Shown piece by piece: positions 4,729-58,084 of a stretch of 64,000 bases of DNA; positions within the stretch are counted from its first letter, which is position 1, and every line of letters starts with the position of its first letter. Below the pieces are notes generated by a model. It was not told where the DNA came from and did not search any database. It saw only the letters and a program-made list of their open reading frames with translations. The stretch comes from Dictyostelium discoideum. Its lineage: Eukaryota. A program made the position numbers and the translations under genes. The DNA lies in assembly GCA_000004695.1 (NCBI GenBank), contig CM000152.2, positions 672,001-736,000 of the forward strand, given 5' to 3'.

Positions 4729-7700
4729 ATGAAGAAATATAATTTTTTATTTTTAATTTTTATTTTAATACATATATCACAAAAAACTTATTCCCAATCA
4801 AGTAAGTGGAAAAAAAAAAATAAAAAAAAAATAAAAAAAAATAAAAAATAATAATAATCAACCAACAAATTTTTTTATTTTAAAATTAAGCTATTAAATT
4901 GAGTTTTTTGGTGTACGATCACACTCCATCAAGAAATCCAGATTTCGAAGCTGCAAATAGTGGAAGGGTTGAAAAGGGTTTAGTAAAAACAGATTTAGGA
5001 GCTGATGGAACACCAGTTTATTGTTGTGGCAGAACCAAGAAAGCATCAATAACAAGTGAAACAACTTTTTATTCTTGGTTTCATAATAAACCTGGTACAA
5101 ATTTACCAATTAATAAAGAAATTACATTGACTCAAAGTACAACAAATCCAAACATTTATTCTTATACCAATGGATCATTTTTTATTATTGACGGAGAAGG
5201 TTTTGATGATAAAGTAATTTTTTTAAATTTATAATATTTTTATTTATAAAATTTAATTTTAATTTTAATTTTTTTTTTTTTTTTTAATTATTAAAATGAT
5301 AAAAAGACAAAATATCCCAACGAAAAGTTATATTATGATCCTGCTAAAAAAGCAAGAAATTTTCATTATTGTATGTAAATCTTATTTTCATTTGAAAAAA
5401 AAAAAAGCTAATAACATTCAATTCAATAGGTGCTCAGGCTCATACACAATTCCAATATAAAACAGGTGATATTTTTTCATTTACTGTATGTTAAAATAAT
5501 TTTTTAAACAAAAATTTATAAATTTAATATTAAATATTTTAAAAAACAATTTAAAGGGCGACGACGATGTTTGGGTTTTTATAAATAATAAACTTGCTGT
5601 TGATTTAGGTGGAATGCATCCACTCTTCATCATCAATTAATCTAGATCAATTAGGGTTGACAAATGGCGCAAATTATAACTTTGATTTTTTTTATTGTGA
5701 AAGACACACTGATGGCTCAACAATACAAATTACAACATCATTAAAATTTGTTTGTCCGTAAGTTTTAGATTTTAAATTAACAAAATAAGAGAAAAAGAAA
5801 AAAAAACAAAAATTAATAAAGTATAATTTAATTATTAGATTTTATGATGGATGTGGAGTTTGCCAAGGTGATAACTCAAGTTGTTGTTTGCCAAGTAATT
5901 GTGACCAAAATCCAAAATATACTGCAAGTTGCCTCCAAGCAAAATGTGTTAATGGTCTTTGCAATGTTCCAGTAACTAGTTGTTCATCTGCAACTCCTTG
6001 TTTTGACAGCGTTTGTACACCATTTGTTGGATGTTCATTGGTACCAAAAAATTGTTCATCTGCCGACTATTGTAGATTGGATTACTGCAATCCAACCATT
6101 AATGCTTGTCAACATGATCCTATTCCTGATTGTATTAGTGTAAATATTTTTTAAATTTTTTAAAAAAAAAATTTTAAAAATTATATAGATTTTAATTTAT
6201 CATTTTATAGTGTTCAAATATAGGTTGTTTAACAACAGATAAATGCTTCCCAAAATCGTATGTTCATTAATGATTTTATTTTAATTTTTAAAAAAGCTAA
6301 AAGTGCTCTAACTTTGATTATATTTTTTATAACCTTCTAAAATATAGATGCAGTCCAGATGGAAAAAGTTGCATTACCAATACAAAATCATGTGATGATA
6401 ATAACCCTTGCACTACAGATACTGTAATATTATATTAAAAATAATTATATTTTTTATTTATTTATTAATTTTAGTTAACCATTTTCCCCCTAAATCACAG
6501 TGTTCAAATGGTAATTGCTTTTACCAAATTATTCCAGATTGTATAAATTGTGGTGGTAACCAATGTTTCAATACTGATAAATGTAATCCAACATCGTAAG
6601 TAAAACAATTTATTTTTGTTTATATTTAATTATCTGGATAATTAACAATATAAAAAATTAAATTATAGATGCGCTTCTGATGGTAAATCATGTGCTCAAG
6701 TCCATGTACTTTGTGATGATCAAAATCACTGTACAGATGATAGTGTATGTAAATAATTGTATTGCTTTTTTTTTTTCTTTTTTTTTGGACATGTGGAAAA
6801 TAAAAAAATCACACCCCACATTCCAACAACTTTGTTAACAAAATTTTTTATTTTCCTCAACTTACAATTTAAAAAATAAATAAATAATTTATAGTGTTCA
6901 AATGGATATTGTATTTCAAATCCTATACCAAATTGTATTGATTGTCCAGACACTGCTTGTATAACAACAGATTTTTGTAATGTTCAAGTGTAGGTTTAAA
7001 ATTAATCTAAAAAATTTAATTAACCAAATTATTAACAATACAAATGATTTTTATTATATTTTATACTAAATAGATGTAGCCCAGATGGAAAAAGTTGTGT
7101 TTCATCTCCAAAAAATTGTAATGATACCAGTTTTTGTACTATTGATAGGTAAATACAAATATTTTATTTGTTTAAAATTTAAAATTTGGATTTTCTAATT
7201 TTAATTATTTATATTTATTAGTTGTAATTCACCAAATGGAACGTGTTCACATTCATTTCCAGATCCTAAATGTGTATCTTGTGCATCCACATCATGTACT
7301 ACAACTGATGATTGCTTAGTTCAAGTTTGTAGTGATGATGGAGCCAGTTGTAATTCAATACCAAAAAATTGTGATGACAAAAACCCTTGTACACAAGATA
7401 GGTAAATATATTTTTATTTCATTAAAATAAAAACAAAAAGAATCAAAATTTTCAATTTTTTAATTATTATTTTAAATAAATAGTTGCTCAAATAATGGAG
7501 TTTGTGCATACACTCCCATTCCAAATTGTTCAATTTGTAACAGTACTTTCGGCTGCATTACCACCGATTTATGTCAACCAATGGTTTGTACAGATCCAGA
7601 TCTTAAATGTGAGATAGATCAAACTCTATGTAATGATGATAACTTTTGTACCACTGATAGTTGCTCAGGAAATGGTATTTGTGCACACACTCCTGTTGAT

Positions 7701-10700
7701 AGTTGTTTAACCTGTTCAAAAAATATTGGTTGTATTACTGTAGATAAATGTAATCCTCAGATGTATGTAATCATTATACCACTAATTAAAATAAATTTAA
7801 TTTTCCATCCCAATTAACTTTTTTTTTAAAAAAAAAAGCTGTTCAAATGATAATAAATCATGTATCACCGGAGATAATGGGTGTGATAAAGGTGATAAAT
7901 GTTCAATAGCTTCATGTGAATCGCCAGCAGGTAATTGTAAATCAACTCCAGTAGTTTGTGATGATAATGATCCTTGTACAATTGATAGGTAAATATAATT
8001 ATTAATAAAATATCATGATTTTAATTATAAACCTCTAACATCCTCTTTTAATTATTTTAATAGTTGTAACCCAGCAGATGGAACTTGTGTACATCAAGAT
8101 ATTAATAACTGTGCTGAATGTGGTAAACTTGGATGTATTACAAGCAATCCTTGTCAGCCAGTTTCTTGTTCAATCACTGGCACAGAATGTAATAAAACAA
8201 AAATTTCATGCGATGATAAAAATCATTGCACTCAAGATGCGTAAGTAAAAAAAAAAGAAAAAAAAACTTGTTAAAAGATAAACTATATTAATATTTTAAA
8301 ATAATTCTTTTTTTAGATGTTCGATAAAAGATGGCTCTTGTTATCATGCAACAATTAATAATTGTATTGATTGCGCAAATCAAGCGTGTATTGTAAGTTT
8401 AAAAACATTTTTTGATAATATGTTTTTAAAAAATACTAATTACTATTTAAATTTGGAACAATAGACATTTGACGCTTGTAAACCAAAAAAATGTGGAGCT
8501 GATGGTAATTGCTATGAAGATCCAGTAACCTGCGATGATGGAAATGGGTGTACAATTGATAGTTGTTCAAGAAATGGTACTTGTTCAAACAAATTAATTG
8601 AAAACTGTGTTAGTTGTAATAGTAGTTTTAATTGTATAACAACCGATTTTTGTGATCCACAAATTTGTTCAGGTGACCCATTAAATCTTAGCTGTATTAA
8701 AAATATGTCAATGTGTGATGATGGAAATTATTGCACAACGGATATATGTTCTGGTAATGGAGTTTGCTCTCACTCATCACCCGATCCTTTATGTAGATCA
8801 TGTAAATCAACAAACTGTACAACAACTGATTTATGTCAACTTCAAATATGTAGTGCGGATGGTAGTGGTTGTGAAACTGATCAAAAAGGTCTTTGTGATG
8901 ATAAAGGTAAAATACAATTATATTCAATTTTAATTCAATTAATTCTAATTCAAATTCTTTTTTTTTTTTTTTAGATCCATGTACAACCGATCTTTGTGAT
9001 AAAGGAGTTTGTACTCACCCAAAAATTACTGATTGTATGGCATGTAATGAAACATTTGCTTGTATTGTAAGTTTTTTAATAATATTTGAAAAAAGTATTA
9101 CTATTACTAATTATTTTTAAAATTATAATTATGATATAGACAACAGTATTTTGTGAATATCAGATATGTAGTAGTGATAAAACCCATTGTATTCAAACAG
9201 AAAGAAATTGTGATGATCAAAATGAATGCAGTACTGATTTTTGTCAAAGTAAATATTAATATATGTTTATTTTTACTATTTTATAATTTTTAATTTTAAA
9301 ATCTAATTTTATAAAATTCTTTTTTAGACGATCAATGTTCTCATTATTTTCCTAAAGATTGTTTCTTGTGTGGAAATCAAACCTGCCATGATTATGACAT
9401 ATGCTACCCAGCCTATTGTGATATCAGCACTTCCACTTGTGCCAACACTACTTTGACTTGTGACGATAAGGACCCATGTACAAAAGATATTTGTTTTTCA
9501 GGAACGGGTTGTGGATTTGTAACTATAGATAGGTGTACAAAATGTAATGAAACTGTAGCATGCATTGAAAAGGATTTATGTAAATCATTGCAATGTCCTG
9601 CCGATGGGTCTGATGAATGTATTTCCTCTGATAAGAATTGTGATGATGGTAATCCATGTACATATTCAGAGTGTGATCCTGAAACTGGTTCATGTATAGA
9701 TTCATTCATTGAAGGTTGTTCACTTTGTTCAAAGCCAGGTGTATATTGTTATTCACAAGATAAATGTTCACCATTAATTTGTAATGATGCTGGAGATGGT
9801 TGTGTTCAAATAAGTCCAAATTGTTCAGATCACCAACGTTGTACGAATGATACTTGCTCAGATGGCCACTGTATAAATACTCCAATCGAAAATTGTATGG
9901 AATGTATTAAAAATTTTCAACCAGTTTTTTCATTCATGGATGTTTCATTATTCTCGGATAATCCCTCAAATGATTCTTTTGGCTGCTACTCCTCAGATAA
10001 ATGCGTTCATGTTGACTGTTTAACTGATCATAGCTGCAATTATACTAAAATCGTATGTGAACCAGACAATTCATGTCATGATAGTTATTGTGATCAAGGA
10101 ATTTGTTATTCTATACCAAAAGAAAATTGTGAAGTTTGCTCAAAAACTTTATATTGTATAACTGATAACCCATGTGAGCCTAGTGTCTGTTCAGATAATA
10201 AAGATTCATGTATCACCAAACCTTTAAATTGTGATGATGATGATAGTTGTACAATAGATTCTTGTAGTCCTGATACCAATTGTACTCATACCCGTATTGC
10301 AGGTTGTCGAGCAGTTCCAACAACAACTGGAATAGCACCTCACACTCACTATTGTGACTATTGTCATGATACTGAAATATGTATTCTAATTGGTGATGTT
10401 CCTACTTGTGTACCAACATCAACAACATCATCAATACCATTAACAACAGTAACAACAGATATTGAATTAGTTGTTACATCTGGTATATATTCCACTGGCC
10501 ATTTCACTGAAAGTGGAACCACTTTTGGAGATAAACCCAGTACAACCACGTCAGAATTAGTATCAACAACCTCCTCTACACCTCCTTATTACAATCTTTG
10601 CGATAGAGTAAGATGCGGTAAAGGTTTAGAATGTTATATGATTGATAATAAACCTGAATGTCTACCATCAAATTACCAATGTATGGACTGTTGGGATTTA

Positions 10701-47659: not shown

Positions 47660-48320
47660 ATGAGTTTAAATTATAACGGTATGTATACAGCAGATAACAG
47701 TTGGGGTAATAAAGGTTCAGGTGCTGCTGTTGCTTATGGAGATAATACAAATATGAATAATGGTTATTGGTCTCAAGATAGCAATGTAGCAAATAATTTT
47801 TATGGTGATAATGGTTTTAATAATAGCAATAATTATGACCAATCACAAAATTATAATATTAATAATAATAATAGTAGTAATAATAATTGGAATCAACAAC
47901 AACAACTACAACAACCATCCTATGCACAAATCGTAGGTGGTAATTGGAGTCAAAATAATCAACAACAACAGCAACAACAGCAACAACAGCAACAACAAAT
48001 TTCACAACCAACTCAACTATCAACTGGATCATCACTAATTGTCCCTCCCCCAACCTTCAAAAAGAAAAAATCTCAAGCAACCACAGCATCAACAACATTG
48101 AATAAACAACCACAACAATCAATTATACAAAATACAGGTTCAATGAATAATATGAATAATACTATTAATAATATGAATAACATGAACATGAATACTACTA
48201 CTAATAATGGTAATAATATGAGTAATATGAATAATAATATTAATAATAATAATAGTATGAATAATATGAATTATAATTTGAATAATATAAATAGTAGCTG
48301 GAACCAACAATACCAACAGC

Positions 48321-48381
<61 letters not shown>

Positions 48382-49905
48382 GCAATATAATAATAATAAT
48401 CAATATAACCAATATAGTCAACAACCACCACCACCACCACAACAACAAATCCAACCACCAACACCACAACCAATTAAAAAAATCACTACACCAATTGCAC
48501 CTCTAACTCCCCCACCACAAACAGCAGCTAAAAAAGAAAAACCATCCAAAAGTTTAACATCTTATGTACAAAGAGCTTTTAAAGCAGCAGAGTCTCAAGA
48601 ACAATTAAAAGAAATGCAAGCATTAATTAAAGAAAAAATTAGTAAAGGTCATTCAAATATCGATTGGGATAATGAACCATTACCAACATTGTAAGTATAT
48701 AATTACAAATCGATATAATCATTTCTACAAATTAAATCTTTATTCTTTACTGACATTTTTTTTTTTTTTTTTTTAATATTAATTTTAGAATTAAAACGGT
48801 AAATATAAAAAGTAATGAAAAAATTTGGCAAGAAGATATGGTTCCACTTTCATTAAAAAATAAAAATAATAATAATAATAATATTAATAGTAAACAAGAT
48901 AAAAAAAGAAAAGCAAATGCACAATCAACAGTTTTTGATTCACCAAATAGTCAAAATAAAAGGTTACAAAGATTTGGAGGTAATAGTAATTGTCAGTATG
49001 CTCCAGGTACTGGTAGTTATTCAATTGAAAAATTTGGACAAGGTAAAGATTTACCACCATTCGATAGTAGTACAGAATTGGATTGGGACACATTGACAAT
49101 CAAAGGTACATGTACAGATTTAGAGAAACCATACCTTAGATTGACATCAGCACCAGATCCATCAACTGTAAGACCAGAGGAAGTTTTGAAAAAGACATTG
49201 GTATTCTTAAAAAAGAAATGGTTAGAGAAAGAGGATTACATCTATACTTGTGAACAATTTAGAAGTATTAGACAAGATCTCACCGTACAAAGAATAAAAA
49301 ATCGTTTCACCGTTGAAGTCTATGAAACTCATGCTCGTCTTGCATTGGAGAATCAAGACTTGGGTCAATTTAATCAATGTCAAACTCAATTGTTCCAACT
49401 CTACAAACAGCCAGGTCTTGCCTCATCAAGTATGAGTGAATTCTATGCCTATCGTCTATTGTATAACATCTACCAAGACAACAGTACCGATATCACTAAA
49501 ACCCTCACCGACATTGATAAGGATAAGTCGGGTGTTGGAAAGTTTGCCCATGTTCAACATGCACTCAAAGTTAGAACCGCCATTTACAATAACAACTATT
49601 GCTCCTACTTTAGACTTTGCAAAGATCCACCCAATATGGCCATATATTTGTTGGATAAGATCACACCACGTATACGTGTTCAAGCATTAAGAATGGTTTT
49701 GAAAGCCTATCGTCCAAACATTTTAATCTCTCAAATTATGGAATTAGGTTTCAAAAATGAAAAAGAGGCTCAAGAGTTTGTTGACAAAAACAAATTAATT
49801 TGGATCAATCCAAAACTTAAAAAAGAAATTGATGCAAAAGCCTCCTCTTCAATTCCTATTGAAATGCCAGTCGCTGTTGTTCATGCTGTTGATGGTCGTT
49901 GGTAA
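47660..49905 (+). CDS. SAC3/GANP-domain protein (LENG8 / Thp3-like), Gln/Asn-rich N-terminus, 2 exons, about 715 aa
   Basis: Exons 47660..48690 (donor GTAAGT at 48691, phase 2) and 48789..49905 (acceptor AATTTTAG). N-terminal prion-like Q/N region with two (CAA)n polyQ tracts. C-terminal SAC3/GANP-type PCI region: EKPYLRLTSAPDPSTVRPEEVLKKTLVFLKKKWLEKEDYIYTCEQFRSIRQDLTVQRIKNRFTVEVYETHARLALENQDLGQFNQCQTQLFQLY...VQALRMVLKAYRP. Confidence 0.75.
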
Positions 49906-50600: not shown

Positions 50601-52035
50601 TTAATGAACACCATTTAAAGTTGGTGAAAAATTATTTGTTTGTGGTTTTAAAGGATTAACAATAGGTACATTAATATGTTGGATTGCCATTGCAACAATA
50701 CTTGTCATATTAACTTCAGGACCGAAAACTTTGATTGGGATATGTAATTTATGACCAATTTCTCTCATATGTTGTAAACCCGATTGATAATTTGGACCAC
50801 CTCTTCTAACGAAAATGGAAAGATTTGATTTAATGATATCATCATGATACTCTTTAATTGCTCTAATGATACCTTTGAAAGTGGCAGCCACATCAGTAAA
50901 ATTAGCAATACCACCACCAATTAATAATGCTCTTGGTCTAGAATCAGGATTTCTGGTTGCCAATGAAATTAAAGTGCATGCATATTTATGAGTATCCTCT
51001 TCATTTGGATCACCGGAATATTCACCATAATTTCCAAGCTCATTACCAAAACCTAAATCAGCAACAGTGTCAGCATAGATAACAGAGGCACCACCTCCGG
51101 CAACCATTGCCCATATTCTTCCTTTTGGATTTAATAAAGTTAATTTCAAGGATGCACCTGTTTTTTCATCAATTTCATTTACATAGGTTTCCTCTGGATA
51201 TAAACTTCTACCAAATGGTTGTGGAAATTGAACTGGTTCGCCATCAACTAACCAACGACCACCACATTTAAATGATGCACATTCATCAACTTCACCTCTT
51301 GCATCTAATGGATAAGGTTTACCTTCTGCATCTAATGTAAATGGATTCATTTCAATAAAATGGAATGATAAATCTATTATGAATTTTTAAAAAAATAAAA
51401 TAAAATAAATTAATAAATTATTAAAATATTAAAATATTAATTATTAATTATTTACCATTAAATAATTTATAAACATTTCTAATAAAATCAATAACATATT
51501 CTCTATTTTGTACAGAAGAATCAATTATTGTATGTAAATCAAATTTATCAATTGATTCACCATATGGAATTTCAATTGAGGAGACTTTATCCCAATTTTC
51601 TTCGATTTCCATACCACCACAATTTGAAAATGAAATTCTATTTGATTCTCTTTCTGCAGTGATTGAAAGGTAGTATTCTTCGGTATGTGGTAAAAATGGC
51701 TCAACAATGAAATGAGTAACCAATCCTGATTTACCTCCAATTTCAACTGGTTTATTTATTTTCTCTTTAATGAATTTATCGGCTTCTTCCAAAGTTGCAT
51801 TTAATAAAACTAAACCATTTTTACCTCTTTTTCCAAATAACATATCTGGTTTAACTACGAGTTTGGAATTGTTGACCCATATATTATCAATTGATTTCGA
51901 TAATTCAATAAGAGTTGGTGTTGTTGGTGAAACTTGAATCATCTTTAAATTTAATTTAGATCCATTGCATGATAATGCAAAATTATTTTTAATAATATAT
52001 TTTGTTGAATATTCTCTTAATTTCTTTCTTGCCAT
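50601..52035 (-). CDS. ATP-citrate lyase subunit A-like (ACLA/ACL small subunit; ATP-grasp + CoA-ligase N-terminal half), 2 exons, about 450 aa
   Basis: Minus-strand exons 52035..51456 (donor GTAAAT, phase 1) and 51373..50601 (acceptor ...CATAATAG). Near-colinear with plant [23 protein letters not shown], compared with Arabidopsis [33 protein letters not shown]...[19 protein letters not shown]...[16 protein letters not shown]...[28 protein letters not shown]...[33 protein letters not shown]...[28 protein letters not shown]...[14 protein letters not shown]. Confidence 0.9.
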
Positions 52036-52147
52036 TTTTTTTTTTTTTATTATTTTAAAAATTTGAAACTATTGAAATTAATTAAACAAAATTTACCACT
52101 AATAAAAATTATTTATATATATTTTATGTGTATACAAATATATATTT

Positions 52148-52192
<45 letters not shown>

Positions 52193-52462
52193 TATAAAAA
52201 ATATTAAAAAATAAATTAAATAAAAAAAAATAATTAAAATTAAAAAAAAAAAAAAAAAAAAGAAAAAGAAAAAATATAGTAATAATGGCGTTAATAATTA
52301 TGAAATTTAATTTTTAATTTTTTTTTGGATAAAAATAAAACAAAATAAAATAAAAAAAAATTATTATTTATTATTAATTATCTATGGAAGGGAATATAAA
52401 AATGATAAATTACTATCGTTTTTGTGTGTATGTTGTATTGTGGGAAAAAAAAATAAATAAAA

Positions 52463-52501
<39 letters not shown>

Positions 52502-52636
52502 AAAAGGTGGTAAATTGGTAGATTAAGAATTTAGATCCAATATAATTATATAATTTTATTATTACCTTTTTTCTTTAATTTTAAATTTTATATACTAATA
52601 ATAATATTATATTGGCCTTATGAATTTTAAAAAATA

Positions 52637-52671
<35 letters not shown>

Positions 52672-54195
52672 CAGGTTAATTGATTCGTTTGAGTTTAAAA
52701 AAAAAAAAATAAAAGTTGAAATTATCCATAATTTGACTATTATAAGTGAAGTTATTTAATGTGTTTTAAAATTGAAAAGGTATGGAGTTATATTTTTTTT
52801 AAATTTTTTTTTTTTTCCAACTTTCAATACCAAATTTGTAGGAAATTTTAAAAAAGGAAAGAAAAAATAAAATAAAAAAACCAAAAATTTGAAAAGAAAA
52901 AAAAAAAAAAAAAAAAAAGGTGTGGTTGTGTGTATTTTTGATTTTTTTTATTTTATTTTAATTATTTTTTTAATTTTTGTTTTTTTTTTTTTTTTTTTTT
53001 TTCCCTTATTAGATAAAAACTAATCCAAATTGATATCTTTATTTAATAAGCAAAACAAGTCATTTATTTGTGTGCAATAAAATAATTTTTTAAATAATTT
53101 TTAATTTAAATTTAAAAAAATAAACAGTTTTAAAATTTTTTATTTTTTTTTTTTTTTTATTTTTTTAATTTTAGAATTATATATTTTTTTTAAACACATT
53201 TAAATTATTTACAATTAAAAAAAATAGGTAAGTTTTATACATACAAAAATTTAATACTATGAAAAAAAAAAAAAAAAAAAAAAAACAATTTTATGTGTTT
53301 TTTTTTTTTTTTAAAAATTAAATTTACATACACACTTTTTTTTTTTTTTTTTTTTTTAATTAAATAACAGTCAACAATCTAAAATATTTTTTTATTTTCC
53401 CAAACATTTTTTTTATTTTTTTTTTTTTTATTTTTTTATTTTTTTTTTTTAAAAAATTTAAATTTTTTTTTTTTTCAATATCAAAAGTGTCTGTTCACAT
53501 AAAAAAAAAAGATTTTTTTAAACAAATTTGCAAATATTTTTAGGGGAAAAATTAAAATCACCAATTTCCCATCTAAATCAGAAAATAAAAAAAACTATTC
53601 CTCAATAATTTAATTTATTTTTTAAAAAAAAACCCTATGTATGTCATAGCAAAATTATATTAAAAAAAATAAAAAATTTAAAAAAAAAATGAATAATAAA
53701 ATTTTGGAATTAATAAGGCTCCCTTCTATTTTTTTTTATTTAATATTTTCATTTTTTTTATTTTTTTAAAACAAATATTTTTTTTTTATTATTTTTTTTT
53801 TTTTTTTTTATAAATCGCAGTCACTGTTTTATTTTAAAATTAATTTAAATTTATAAAAACAAATATTTTTATTTATTTATTTTAATCATTGATAACCTAA
53901 TAATTATTTAATTGTGAGTCATAACACAATAAAAATATCTATATAAAAATAAAATAAAAAAAAATATTCTCCATTCCTTTTTTTTTTTTTTATTATTTTT
54001 TATTTTTTTTTTTTTCAAAAATATTATCTGTACATAATATAATTATAAAATTCTAACAAATAATTTATTATTAAAAAAAAAAAAAAAAAAAAAATTAGTT
54101 TTTAATTTATTTAGAAAAAAAAAAATAATAAATTATTTGTTAAATAAATAATTTTATTATTTTAATAATATATAAAAAAATATATATATAAAGAA
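52036..54195. promoter_or_regulatory. 2.16-kb AT-rich intergenic region shared by the divergently transcribed ACL subunit A-like and subunit B-like genes (putative bidirectional promoter)
   Basis: Lies between the start codons of the minus-strand gene at 52035 and the plus-strand gene at 54196. No ORF of substance. Many poly(A)/poly(T) tracts. Confidence 0.5.
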
Positions 54196-56064
54196 ATGAC
54201 AAATAGTAATTTTAATCATGGTAATCATGGTAGTAATTTACCAGCAAGGTTATTTACAAAACAATCACAGGCATTAATTTATAATTATAAAGAAGCAGCA
54301 GTCCAAAGAATGTTAGATTTTGATAATGTTTCACAAAGGGATACACCATCAGTGGGTGGGTTAATTCATCCAGGATCCGATGGTGGTATGTATAAAGCAT
54401 TCTTTGGATTTAAAGAGTTGGTAATACCAGTTTATAATTCAGTATCAGAAGCATGTCAACAATGTCCAAATGCAGATGTATTTTTAAATTTTGCATCACA
54501 TCGTTCAGCTTACCAATCATCGTTATTGGCATTAAGAGAACCATCGATTCAAACCGTTGTTATCATTGCAGAGGGTGTACCAGAGAATGAAGCACGTTCA
54601 TTGATATCAATTGCAAAGAAATTGGGTAAGGTTATAATCGGACCTGCAACTGTTGGTGGCATTCAAGCTGGTTGTTTCAAAATTGGTAATACCGCAGGTA
54701 CAATCGTTTATATTATGGCTTGTAAATTGTATAGATCAGGTTCAGTTGGCTTCGTTTCAAAGAGTGGTGGTTTGTCCAATGAAATGTATAATGTACTCTC
54801 AAGATGTACCGATGGTATCTATGAAGGTATCGCAATTGGAGGTGATGCTTTCCCTGGCTCAACACTCACAGACCATGCCCTACGTTATGAGAAATTGCCA
54901 GAGGTTCAAATGATTGTTATATTGGGTGAGTTGGGTGGATGGGACGAGTATGGAATTGTGGAGGCATTGAAAAAGGGTGAAATTACAAAACCAATTTGTG
55001 CATGGGTATCTGGTACTGTTGCAAAGATTTTCCCAACCGAAGTACAATTTGGTCATGCAGGTGCAAAATCTGGTGGTGAAACTGAATCTGCCGATGCAAA
55101 GAATAAAGCTTTACGTGAGGCTGGTGCAGTTGTACCAACTTCTTTTGAAGATTTCTCAAATGTTATTGCCGCTACCTATGCCAAACTTCAATCAAAGGGT
55201 TTGGTTAAACCAGTTGAAGAACCAACACCACCTGAATTACCATTAGATTTCAAGACTGCAGTTAAGGCTGGTAAAGTTAGAAAGCCAACATCAATTATCT
55301 CTACAATTTGTGATGATCGTGGTGATGAACTTTCCTATGCAGGTGTACCAATTAGTGAAGTATGTAAAGAGCAATATAATATGGGTGATGTGATTGGCTT
55401 ACTTTGGTTCAAGAGAAAGTTACCACCATACGCTTCCAAGTTCTTTGAAATGTGTTTGAAACTAGTTGCCGATCATGGTCCATGTGTTAGTGGTGCTCAT
55501 AATACAATCGTTGCTGCTCGTGCTGGTAAGGATTTAGTATCAAGTCTTGTTTCAGGTTTATTAACAATTGGACCACGTTTTGGTGGTGCCATCGATGATA
55601 GTGCTCGTGTATTCCAAGATGCAGTCGATAACAATTTACAACCATCACAATTTGTTGAAGGTATGAAATCAAAGGGTAAAAGAATTCCAGGTATTGGTCA
55701 TTTAATTAAATCTGCCGATGAAATCGATAAAAGAGTAGTATTATTAAAAGATTATGCTTTCACTCATTTCTCATCAACAAAATATTTAGAATACGCATTG
55801 GAAGTTGAAAAATATACCCTTCAAAAAGCAAATAATTTAATTTTAAATGTTGATGGTTGTATTGGTGTATTATTTTTAGATTTATTACATTCATCCGGTT
55901 TATTCACTCAACATGAAATTAAAGAAATTATAGATGTTGGTTATTTAAATGGTTTCTTTATTGTTGGTAGAAGTGTTGGTTTAATCGGTCACGCATTAGA
56001 TCAACGTAGAAATAAACAAGGACTTTATAGACACCAAGCTGATGATGTTCATTATGCCCTTTAA
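54196..56064 (+). CDS. ATP-citrate lyase subunit B-like (ACLB/ACL large subunit; CoA-binding + citryl-CoA lyase/citrate-synthase-like half), 622 aa, intronless
   Basis: Complete ORF. Near-colinear with plant ACLB and with human ACLY residues about 480-1100. LFTKQSQALIYNYKEAAVQRMLDFD...IIAEGVPE...IGPATVGGIQAGCFKIGNTAGT...VSKSGGLSNEMYN...GIAIGGDAFPGSTL...VQFGHAGAK (catalytic-His region)...LLWFKRKLP...ADHGPCVSGAHNTIVAARAGKDLVSSLVSGLLTIGPRFGGAIDD...NVDGCIGVLFLDLL...GLYRH. Confidence 0.92.
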   Translation: MTNSNFNHGNHGSNLPARLFTKQSQALIYNYKEAAVQRMLDFDNVSQRDTPSVGGLIHPGSDGGMYKAFFGFKELVIPVYNSVSEACQQCPNADVFLNFASHRSAYQSSLLALREPSIQTVVIIAEGVPENEARSLISIAKKLGKVIIGPATVGGIQAGCFKIGNTAGTIVYIMACKLYRSGSVGFVSKSGGLSNEMYNVLSRCTDGIYEGIAIGGDAFPGSTLTDHALRYEKLPEVQMIVILGELGGWDEYGIVEALKKGEITKPICAWVSGTVAKIFPTEVQFGHAGAKSGGETESADAKNKALREAGAVVPTSFEDFSNVIAATYAKLQSKGLVKPVEEPTPPELPLDFKTAVKAGKVRKPTSIISTICDDRGDELSYAGVPISEVCKEQYNMGDVIGLLWFKRKLPPYASKFFEMCLKLVADHGPCVSGAHNTIVAARAGKDLVSSLVSGLLTIGPRFGGAIDDSARVFQDAVDNNLQPSQFVEGMKSKGKRIPGIGHLIKSADEIDKRVVLLKDYAFTHFSSTKYLEYALEVEKYTLQKANNLILNVDGCIGVLFLDLLHSSGLFTQHEIKEIIDVGYLNGFFIVGRSVGLIGHALDQRRNKQGLYRHQADDVHYAL

Positions 56065-57622: not shown

Positions 57623-58084
57623 ATGAAATTCTTAACTGTCTTATTAATTGTAATTGTTGTATTATCATGCTTATTTTCAACATCATTGGCAACCACCAAA
57701 GCTTCAATTGCAAGATGTGATGATTGTAAAAATGCATTAAGAACTGTTGATTCAAAATTACCAGGAAAAAGATCAAGAGAACAAATTGAAAATTATCTTC
57801 AAGGAGCTTGTCAACAAGCTACTGCAATTGTTCCACTTCCTGAATTACCTATTTCACTCCCAGTTCCAATAGTAAGTAATTTTTTTTTTCTTTTTTTTTC
57901 CTATTTAATAATAAATTTAATATTAATTAATTATTTTAATGAAAAAAAAAAAAAAATGAAAAAAAAAAAAATTATAATAATAATAAAGTGTTCATTAATT
58001 ACTGCCCATCGTAGTGAATTAGTTCAAGGATTAATTGAAAGAAAAGAATATACTTCCATTTGTAAAAATGCTAAATTATGTTAA
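57623..58084 (+). CDS. Saposin-like (SAPLIP / amoebapore-like) small secreted protein, 2 exons, about 114 aa
   Basis: Exons 57623..57871 (donor GTAAGT at 57872) and 57989..58084 (acceptor ...AATAAAG). Signal peptide MKFLTVLLIVIVVLSCLFSTSLA. The mature part has six Cys in saposin-B spacing: C-DD-C-KNALRTV...LQGAC...|C-SLITAHRSELVQGLIERKEYTSI-C-KNAKL-C. Confidence 0.7.
   Translation: MKFLTVLLIVIVVLSCLFSTSLATTKASIARCDDCKNALRTVDSKLPGKRSREQIENYLQGACQQATAIVPLPELPISLPVPIVSNFFFLFFSYLIINLILINYFNEKKKKMKKKKIIIIIKCSLITAHRSELVQGLIERKEYTSICKNAKLC

Follow-up and report, generated by a model that had tools for sequence, protein, structure and literature searches.

The gene pair described here lies between positions 50,601 and 56,064 of a 64,000-nucleotide stretch of Dictyostelium discoideum DNA (assembly GCA_000004695.1, contig CM000152.2, positions 672,001 to 736,000; the whole stretch is hereafter the window). 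With a probability that we put at about 0.85, these two genes specify ACLA and ACLB, which together make up a heteromeric ATP-citrate lyase (ACL; EC 2.3.3.8), and are transcribed divergently from one spacer in a layout that related species conserve, and represented by mRNAs that vary together. ACLA brings the ATP-grasp and citrate-binding domains; the CoA-binding domain, the loop with the phospho-histidine and, at the C-terminal end, the citryl-CoA-lyase module all reside in ACLB. Using ATP and CoA, the pair would split citrate in the cytosol to give acetyl-CoA and oxaloacetate, the reaction carried out by the fused human enzyme (ACLY), and the acetyl-CoA produced would feed lipid and polyketide synthesis. 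Both genes are read outward from a single 2.16-kb gene-free spacer, and their mRNAs change together according to food source. The pair and its annotation are already known, as are the names aclyA and aclyB, which were given by Sillo et al. 2008 (PMC2443395); nothing is new in their identity.

Gene structure and enzyme assignment

ACLA (aclyA, DDB_G0278341) is encoded on the minus strand, where two open reading frames are listed (52035..51448 and 51350..50601). Splicing between a GT at 51455 and an AG at 51374 removes an 82-nt phase 1 intron (51374..51455; GTAAAT...TAATAG) and joins exon 1 (51456..52035; codons 1-193 plus one nucleotide), which covers the ATP-grasp domain, to exon 2 (50601..51373), which carries the end of that domain, the citrate-binding domain and a 25-residue C-terminal tail before the TAA stop. 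The resulting 1353-nt coding sequence specifies 450 amino acids and exactly matches a protein of D. discoideum AX4 (XP_642300.1/EAL68343.1/Q54YA2). ACLB (acly/aclyB, DDB_G0278345) is read from the plus strand as a single uninterrupted exon (54196..56064) of 622 codons for CoA-binding/CoA-ligase domains and a citryl-CoA-lyase (citrate-synthase-like) module; its product is likewise identical to an AX4 entry (XP_642302.1/EAL68345.1/Q54YA0), annotated as "Probable ATP-citrate synthase". The genes occupy opposite strands, and each has a separate ATG and TAA. In the AX4 records the contig concerned measures 6,357,299 bp.

Inspection of the splice sites and comparison with other dictyostelids both point to the same ACLA intron. 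An intron after codon 193 is also present in D. citrinum, Polysphondylium violaceum, Cavenderia fasciculata and Acytostelium subglobosum, and matches to Heterostelium album ACLA break at about the same point. The Tieghemostelium lacteum gene, by contrast, is intronless and aligns in one piece, so that the junction ...KLFN|DLSFHF... reads through it unbroken. P. violaceum ACLB has an intron of its own near codon 518, which is absent from the D. discoideum gene.

The domain content of each product is that of the corresponding ACL subunit. In Pfam, ACLA matches PF24948 Citrate_synth_N (the ATP-grasp domain; 1e-62) followed by the ACL-specific PF16114 Citrate_bind (1e-84), both above their gathering scores, and ACLB matches PF00549 Ligase_CoA (6e-16) and PF00285 Citrate_synt (6e-24). 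Searches against sequences of known structure returned colinear alignments to human ACLY and to the ACLY-A and ACLY-B subunits of the archaeon Methanothrix concilii, with E values from 1e-111 to 1e-230. ACLA residues 1-425 align along the full length of M. concilii ACLY-A (423 bits), and residues 19-444 align with human 18-439 (375 bits, 45% identity); ACLB residues 19-621 align with M. concilii ACLY-B (768 bits), and residues 17-622 with human 490-1095, at 54% identity and with 0 gaps (745 bits).

At the level of individual residues, all five catalytic positions checked are kept in ACLB, where E126, H287, H427, H502 and D553 correspond to human E599, H760, H900, H975 and D1026. The codon for His287 (55054..55056, plus strand) falls within the phospho-histidine loop VQFGHAGA and aligns with the catalytic phospho-histidine H760. 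H427, H502 and D553 preserve the His/His/Asp set of the citryl-CoA-lyase module; the Asp553 codon (55852..55854, plus strand) lies within LILNVDG, and the residue aligns both with human D1026 and with the site of the Asp-to-Ala substitution in the M. concilii mutant 6znw. We regard the assignment of both proteins to ATP-citrate lyase as secure, and judging from sequence the two products would be expected to assemble into an active heteromer located in the cytosol.

A preliminary description of this DNA, made from its letters alone, had given the coordinates and exon counts of the two genes, quoted peptide motifs from them, and proposed colinearity of the products with the N-terminal and C-terminal portions of animal ACLY, with a catalytic histidine region in the large subunit. 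The reading frames and the exact AX4 matches agree with the first of these claims, and the human alignments and H287 bear out the others. Its proposal that the two frames are separate divergent genes also held, in that the same arrangement of separate genes recurs in independent assemblies.

Other accounts of these proteins have to be weighed against this body of evidence. Their domains are common to the ACL, succinyl-CoA synthetase and citryl-CoA enzyme families, and it is conceivable on that basis that they are superfamily paralogues (succinyl-CoA synthetase, or citryl-CoA synthetase plus citryl-CoA lyase), or else decaying pseudogenes. We consider either outcome extremely improbable. ACL structures are matched at 375-768 bits, succinyl-CoA synthetase at 23-115 bits, and citryl-CoA synthetase and lyase at 55-82 bits; matches to citrate synthase are likewise much weaker than those to ACL, and the strongest Pfam match of ACLA is to a domain specific to ACL. 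Decay is contradicted by reading frames that are intact and share 98-99% identity among Dictyostelium species, and by the detection of transcripts. Less credible still, to the point where it can be set aside for practical purposes, is an assembly artefact in which a piece of one fused ACLY gene has been inverted. Nothing was found in its favor, and a divergent layout with a spacer of ~2.1-2.5 kb recurs in assemblies made independently for D. discoideum, D. citrinum, D. purpureum and P. violaceum. Moreover, each gene has a start and a stop codon of its own, and ACLA ends and ACLB begins at the subunit boundaries seen in plants and archaea.

Relationship to other ATP-citrate lyases

Among the forms of the enzyme compared, the two-subunit ones of plants and Micrarchaeota resemble the Dictyostelium proteins more than fused human ACLY does. 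Plant ACLA is 55-56% identical (about 495-508 bits) and plant ACLB ~65% identical (~900 bits); the corresponding values for Micrarchaeota, a lineage of DPANN archaea, are 57-59% (up to 550 bits) and 66-67% (up to 937 bits), making these the most similar named relatives outside the dictyostelids. Human ACLY scores lower than plant and archaeal proteins alike, at 375 bits versus ~500-550 for ACLA and 745 bits versus ~900-937 for ACLB. It shares the domain order and the five catalytic residues (PDB 6hxh, 6poe and others), but is a single polypeptide of 1101 amino acids with a linker (~426-486) that has no counterpart in Dictyostelium. The archaeal enzymes, for instance those of Micrarchaeota and M. 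concilii (ACLY-A/B, PDB 6hxi), have two subunits with the same boundaries as the Dictyostelium pair, and the best PDB matches of both ACLA and ACLB are the M. concilii structures.

Plant ACLA and ACLB, as in Arabidopsis (the two-subunit 'dsACL' type), share with the Dictyostelium proteins the division into two polypeptides, the split point, the Pfam domains and a common clade in distance trees. The Dictyostelium subunits differ in two additions: the tail of ACLA (residues 426-450, encoded at 50601-50678), which is absent from the 423-residue plant subunit, and an N-terminal extension of ~16 residues on ACLB (residues 1-16, encoded at 54196-54243), which is absent from the 608-residue plant subunit. 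Among other dictyostelids these tails vary, with many N, S, G and H residues. A phmmer alignment of ACLA extends just into the linker between the human domains (to human 439), although this alignment of the tail may mean nothing.

Phylogenetic placement was examined with neighbour-joining trees, a distance method, built from ACLA alone (428 columns, 100 bootstrap replicates, unrooted split counting) and sampling named plant, archaeal, fungal and PDB-derived sequences. Dictyostelids group together in 100/100 replicates, and dictyostelids, plants and Micrarchaeota in 87/100, which rises to 100/100 when one metagenomic relative is added. On the opposite side of the split stand the fused opisthokont ACLY proteins and the ascomycete subunits (100/100). 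In published work the eukaryotic ACLA/B proteins branch with DPANN archaea and fused ACLY elsewhere (PMC11976288); judged by these distance trees, the placement of Dictyostelium ACLA within a plant/DPANN two-subunit clade matches the published one.

The ascomycete enzyme, which also consists of two polypeptides, provides an instructive comparison. For the ascomycete subunits, identity to Dictyostelium ACLA is 38-40%, as against 63-64% to one fused fungal ACLY of chytrid-like type, and in 100/100 replicates these subunits fall within the fused fungal/opisthokont proteins. A secondary fission of the ascomycete type was considered for the Dictyostelium genes but is at odds with this low identity and with the 100/100 split, which leaves Dictyostelium ACLA on the other side. 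Gawryluk et al. 2015 (cited in PMC11976288 and PMC5851275) are reported to have proposed a secondary fission for ascomycete ACL, and the tree obtained here agrees. The preliminary description had called the locus plant/fungal-type and both of its halves strikingly plant-like. The second statement stands, on identities (~56% to plants versus 45% to human for ACLA; ~65% versus 54% for ACLB) and on the tree; the first is right for gene structure, but merges two origins.

Searches beyond the window also brought up tandem ACLB-ACLB fusions of ~1000-1040 amino acids (P0128-P0140 and P0143), located on metagenome, Logan and NCBI contigs of up to 102 kb. In P0128, ACLB residues 19-607 align with residues 9-598 at 56% identity, and ACLB residues 159-622 align with 577-1020 at 48%. 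The first copy keeps FGHAGA, but its lyase module is degenerate (ADRDPQASGAANA, LNLDG); in the second the histidine loop has degenerated (FGHMLVP) and the lyase module is intact.

Gene order across species

The head-to-head layout is found in five dictyostelid species. Its spacer measures 2160 bp in the window and 2146 bp in a second D. discoideum assembly, 2075 bp in D. citrinum, 2309 bp in D. purpureum, about 2.5 kb in P. violaceum and 630 bp in T. lacteum. These species belong to dictyostelid groups 3 and 4 (Dictyosteliales), one of the two major dictyostelid branches, and it is this branch that the layout follows. Three further dictyostelids have a different gene order: no ACLB lies within 10 kb of ACLA in A. 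subglobosum or H. album, and in C. fasciculata none lies within ~10 kb upstream of ACLA, nor in the 1.4 kb to the end of the contig. The contig on which ACLB is recorded differs in length from the ACLA contig in both Cavenderia and Acytostelium. The synteny check in other Amoebozoa that the preliminary description had called for came out in favor of linkage in four other dictyostelids and against it in three. A single gain or a single loss explains this distribution; among the homologue matches, no outgroup amoebozoan was identified by which gene order could be polarized. In P. violaceum (5576-8967 and 7506-10000 of its locus), the annotated ACLB model of 636 amino acids starts ~1.4 kb upstream of the point where homology starts (7502), and the spacer has a GC content of 26%, compared with 11-15% in other species. 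These peculiarities may reflect an extra exon, a mis-annotation or some other feature.

Outside the dictyostelids, linkage takes several forms. ACL subunit genes are multi-copy and unlinked in Arabidopsis, and the ACLB of Klebsormidium, a streptophyte alga, has no ACLA within 5-10 kb of it. Divergent ACL genes have reportedly been described in Sordaria (acl1/acl2) and Aspergillus (aclA/aclB), in work by Nowrousian et al. 2000 and Hynes & Murray 2010. In Talaromyces stipitatus we find the two subunit genes head-to-head across an 1854-bp spacer, as in Dictyostelium, although the split is of separate origin. For Aspergillus nidulans, aclA and aclB (AN2435, AN2436) have been found to fall together 22-fold on ethanol (PMC1794588). 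Because a divergent layout occurs both in Dictyosteliales and in Talaromyces, whose splits arose separately, the architecture hints at some advantage of linkage; that linkage is not needed, on the other hand, follows from the existence of dictyostelids with unlinked genes. By our own estimate, the probability that two subunits of one enzyme come to be adjacent by chance among ~12,500 genes is about 1e-4, so that chance adjacency is unlikely.

The closest archaeal relatives present a further arrangement, an acn-icd-aclA-aclB operon in place of divergence from a long spacer. On a Micrarchaeota contig (WJIU01000024.1, 1843-8082) the genes for aconitase, isocitrate dehydrogenase and the two ACL subunits all run in one direction and lie close together, with an 8-bp overlap between aclA and aclB; the ACL proteins of this DPANN archaeon are 57-67% identical to those of Dictyostelium. 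One could imagine that the linkage in Dictyosteliales is not a later coming-together but a remnant of this archaeal adjacency, in which one of the genes has been inverted and the spacer has grown. We think this very unlikely, but if true it would make the locus a rare eukaryotic case in which the operon linkage of prokaryotes has been kept for an enzyme of central metabolism. In a weaker variant, selection for a balanced dosage of the subunits could have produced head-to-head linkage twice, once in Dictyosteliales and once in Ascomycota.

The spacer and possible shared control

The spacer (52036..54195) extends for 2160 bp from ATG to ATG, in line with the shared intergenic region of ~2.2 kb that the preliminary description had reported. 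Like the window as a whole it is very AT-rich, with an overall GC content of 11.3%; exons have 27-36%, and spacers 7-19%. Two non-coding blocks within it are candidate regulatory elements: block 1 (52760..53107), which is 84-91% identical to D. citrinum, and block 2 (53351..53800), which is mostly 80-92% identical apart from one 100-bp window at 74%. Outside the blocks, identity to D. citrinum is 55-65%. Across seven non-coding segments of the 18-kb neighborhood, the share of 100-bp windows well conserved against D. citrinum is 20% in the ACL spacer and 0-9% in the others.

Such conservation raises the prospect that the spacer is not truly shared, and that a small gene or a non-coding RNA lies between the two ACL genes. 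The AX4 identifiers point the same way, in that each series skips one number between the two genes (EAL68343/EAL68345, XP_642300/XP_642302, DDB_G0278341/DDB_G0278345); a literature search with DDB_G0278343 and older DDB gene numbers found no paper. Even so, we judge a hidden gene to be very unlikely. In a list of open reading frames down to 25 amino acids, none in the spacer exceeds 45 amino acids and those present are of low complexity, and the only ATG-initiated frame of 45 codons is broken in D. citrinum. Along the whole spacer GC content keeps to 7-19%, a tRNA scan found 0 tRNAs, Rfam gave 0 matches at E<=1, and no unusually stable RNA fold emerged among eight 150-nt pieces folded on both strands (z -1.8 to +1.2). 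Three independent annotations, namely those of the second D. discoideum assembly, D. citrinum and D. purpureum, call no gene there. Setting aside the gap in AX4 accession numbers, the ACL genes form a divergent pair that no other gene interrupts.

Expression data from the literature cover one kind of comparison, that of growth on bacteria with growth in axenic medium. In a 2008 microarray study both aclyA and aclyB fell 16-20-fold in cells feeding on bacteria, and a Northern blot check of some of the genes included aclyB (Sillo et al., PMC2443395). This result supports co-regulation of the two genes, but not a shared promoter as such. Elements in the shared spacer could plausibly control both genes, and the preliminary description's view of the locus as a bidirectional co-regulation unit is upheld in part: the mRNAs do fall together, while the length of the spacer, the three dictyostelids in which linkage is missing and the lack of a repeated motif count against the remainder.

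Several observations weigh against the reading of the locus as a conserved, co-regulated ACL pair. Linkage of ACLA and ACLB is dispensable in dictyostelids, because in three of them the 10 kb around ACLA contain no ACLB. In the literature consulted, no activity measurement was found for the D. discoideum pair. Bidirectional pairs commonly have start sites less than 1 kb apart; the ATG codons of the D. discoideum pair are 2160 bp apart, and the T. lacteum spacer measures 630 bp. A spacer as long as that of D. discoideum is as compatible with two independent promoters as with a single control region that both genes share. Blocks 1 and 2 are recognizable only against the sibling species D. citrinum, and not in D. 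purpureum, P. violaceum or T. lacteum. Footprinting against these more distant species compared shared G/C-containing k-mers and short-word BLAST matches with shuffled controls, and none exceeded the controls; a single 12-mer common to the spacer and P. violaceum (AAAAACCCTATG) was rejected as being about what chance predicts. Finally, no G/C-containing motif that D. citrinum conserves is repeated in the spacer, whether direct or inverted, and one inverted pair of 10-mers was discarded as not conserved there.

The same observations lend substance to the most serious competing explanation, in which adjacency is a neutral accident, each of two true ACL genes has its own promoter, and co-regulation comes about through trans-acting factors at separate sites. 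The long spacer, the lack of a shared or inverted motif, the absence of deep conservation in spacer sequence and the separation of the genes in three dictyostelids and in the alga Klebsormidium would all be accommodated by it. It has more difficulty with a layout that is kept across at least three genera of Dictyosteliales and is met again in the independently split ascomycete Talaromyces, a hint of selection for linkage, and with two mRNAs that change by nearly the same factor. Neutral adjacency is accordingly a possibility that we take seriously, while inclining to doubt it. The conserved, co-regulated ACL pair is the reading that we prefer.

Beyond the pair itself, both flanking neighbors are syntenic with D. 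citrinum. On one side lies a gene at 47660-49905 (plus strand), convergent with ACLA across a 695-bp gap, whose D. citrinum orthologue has a SAC3/GANP domain. On the other, 1558 bp downstream of ACLB, is a small gene (57623-58084, plus strand) whose orthologue has a faint saposin-B match.

The head-to-head pair is real and tidy but ordinary, its layout can be seen by any user of a genome browser, and beyond good annotation the locus matters little. The distribution of the layout is a minor comparative note, though the occurrence of head-to-head genes in two lineages of different split origin may interest specialists in the evolution of gene order. A compact divergent pair under strong nutrient-dependent regulation could also serve as a natural two-output promoter cassette. 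As for function, cytosolic acetyl-CoA comes mainly by way of ACL, and the Dictyostelium enzyme would supply both fatty-acid metabolism and a very large polyketide metabolism.

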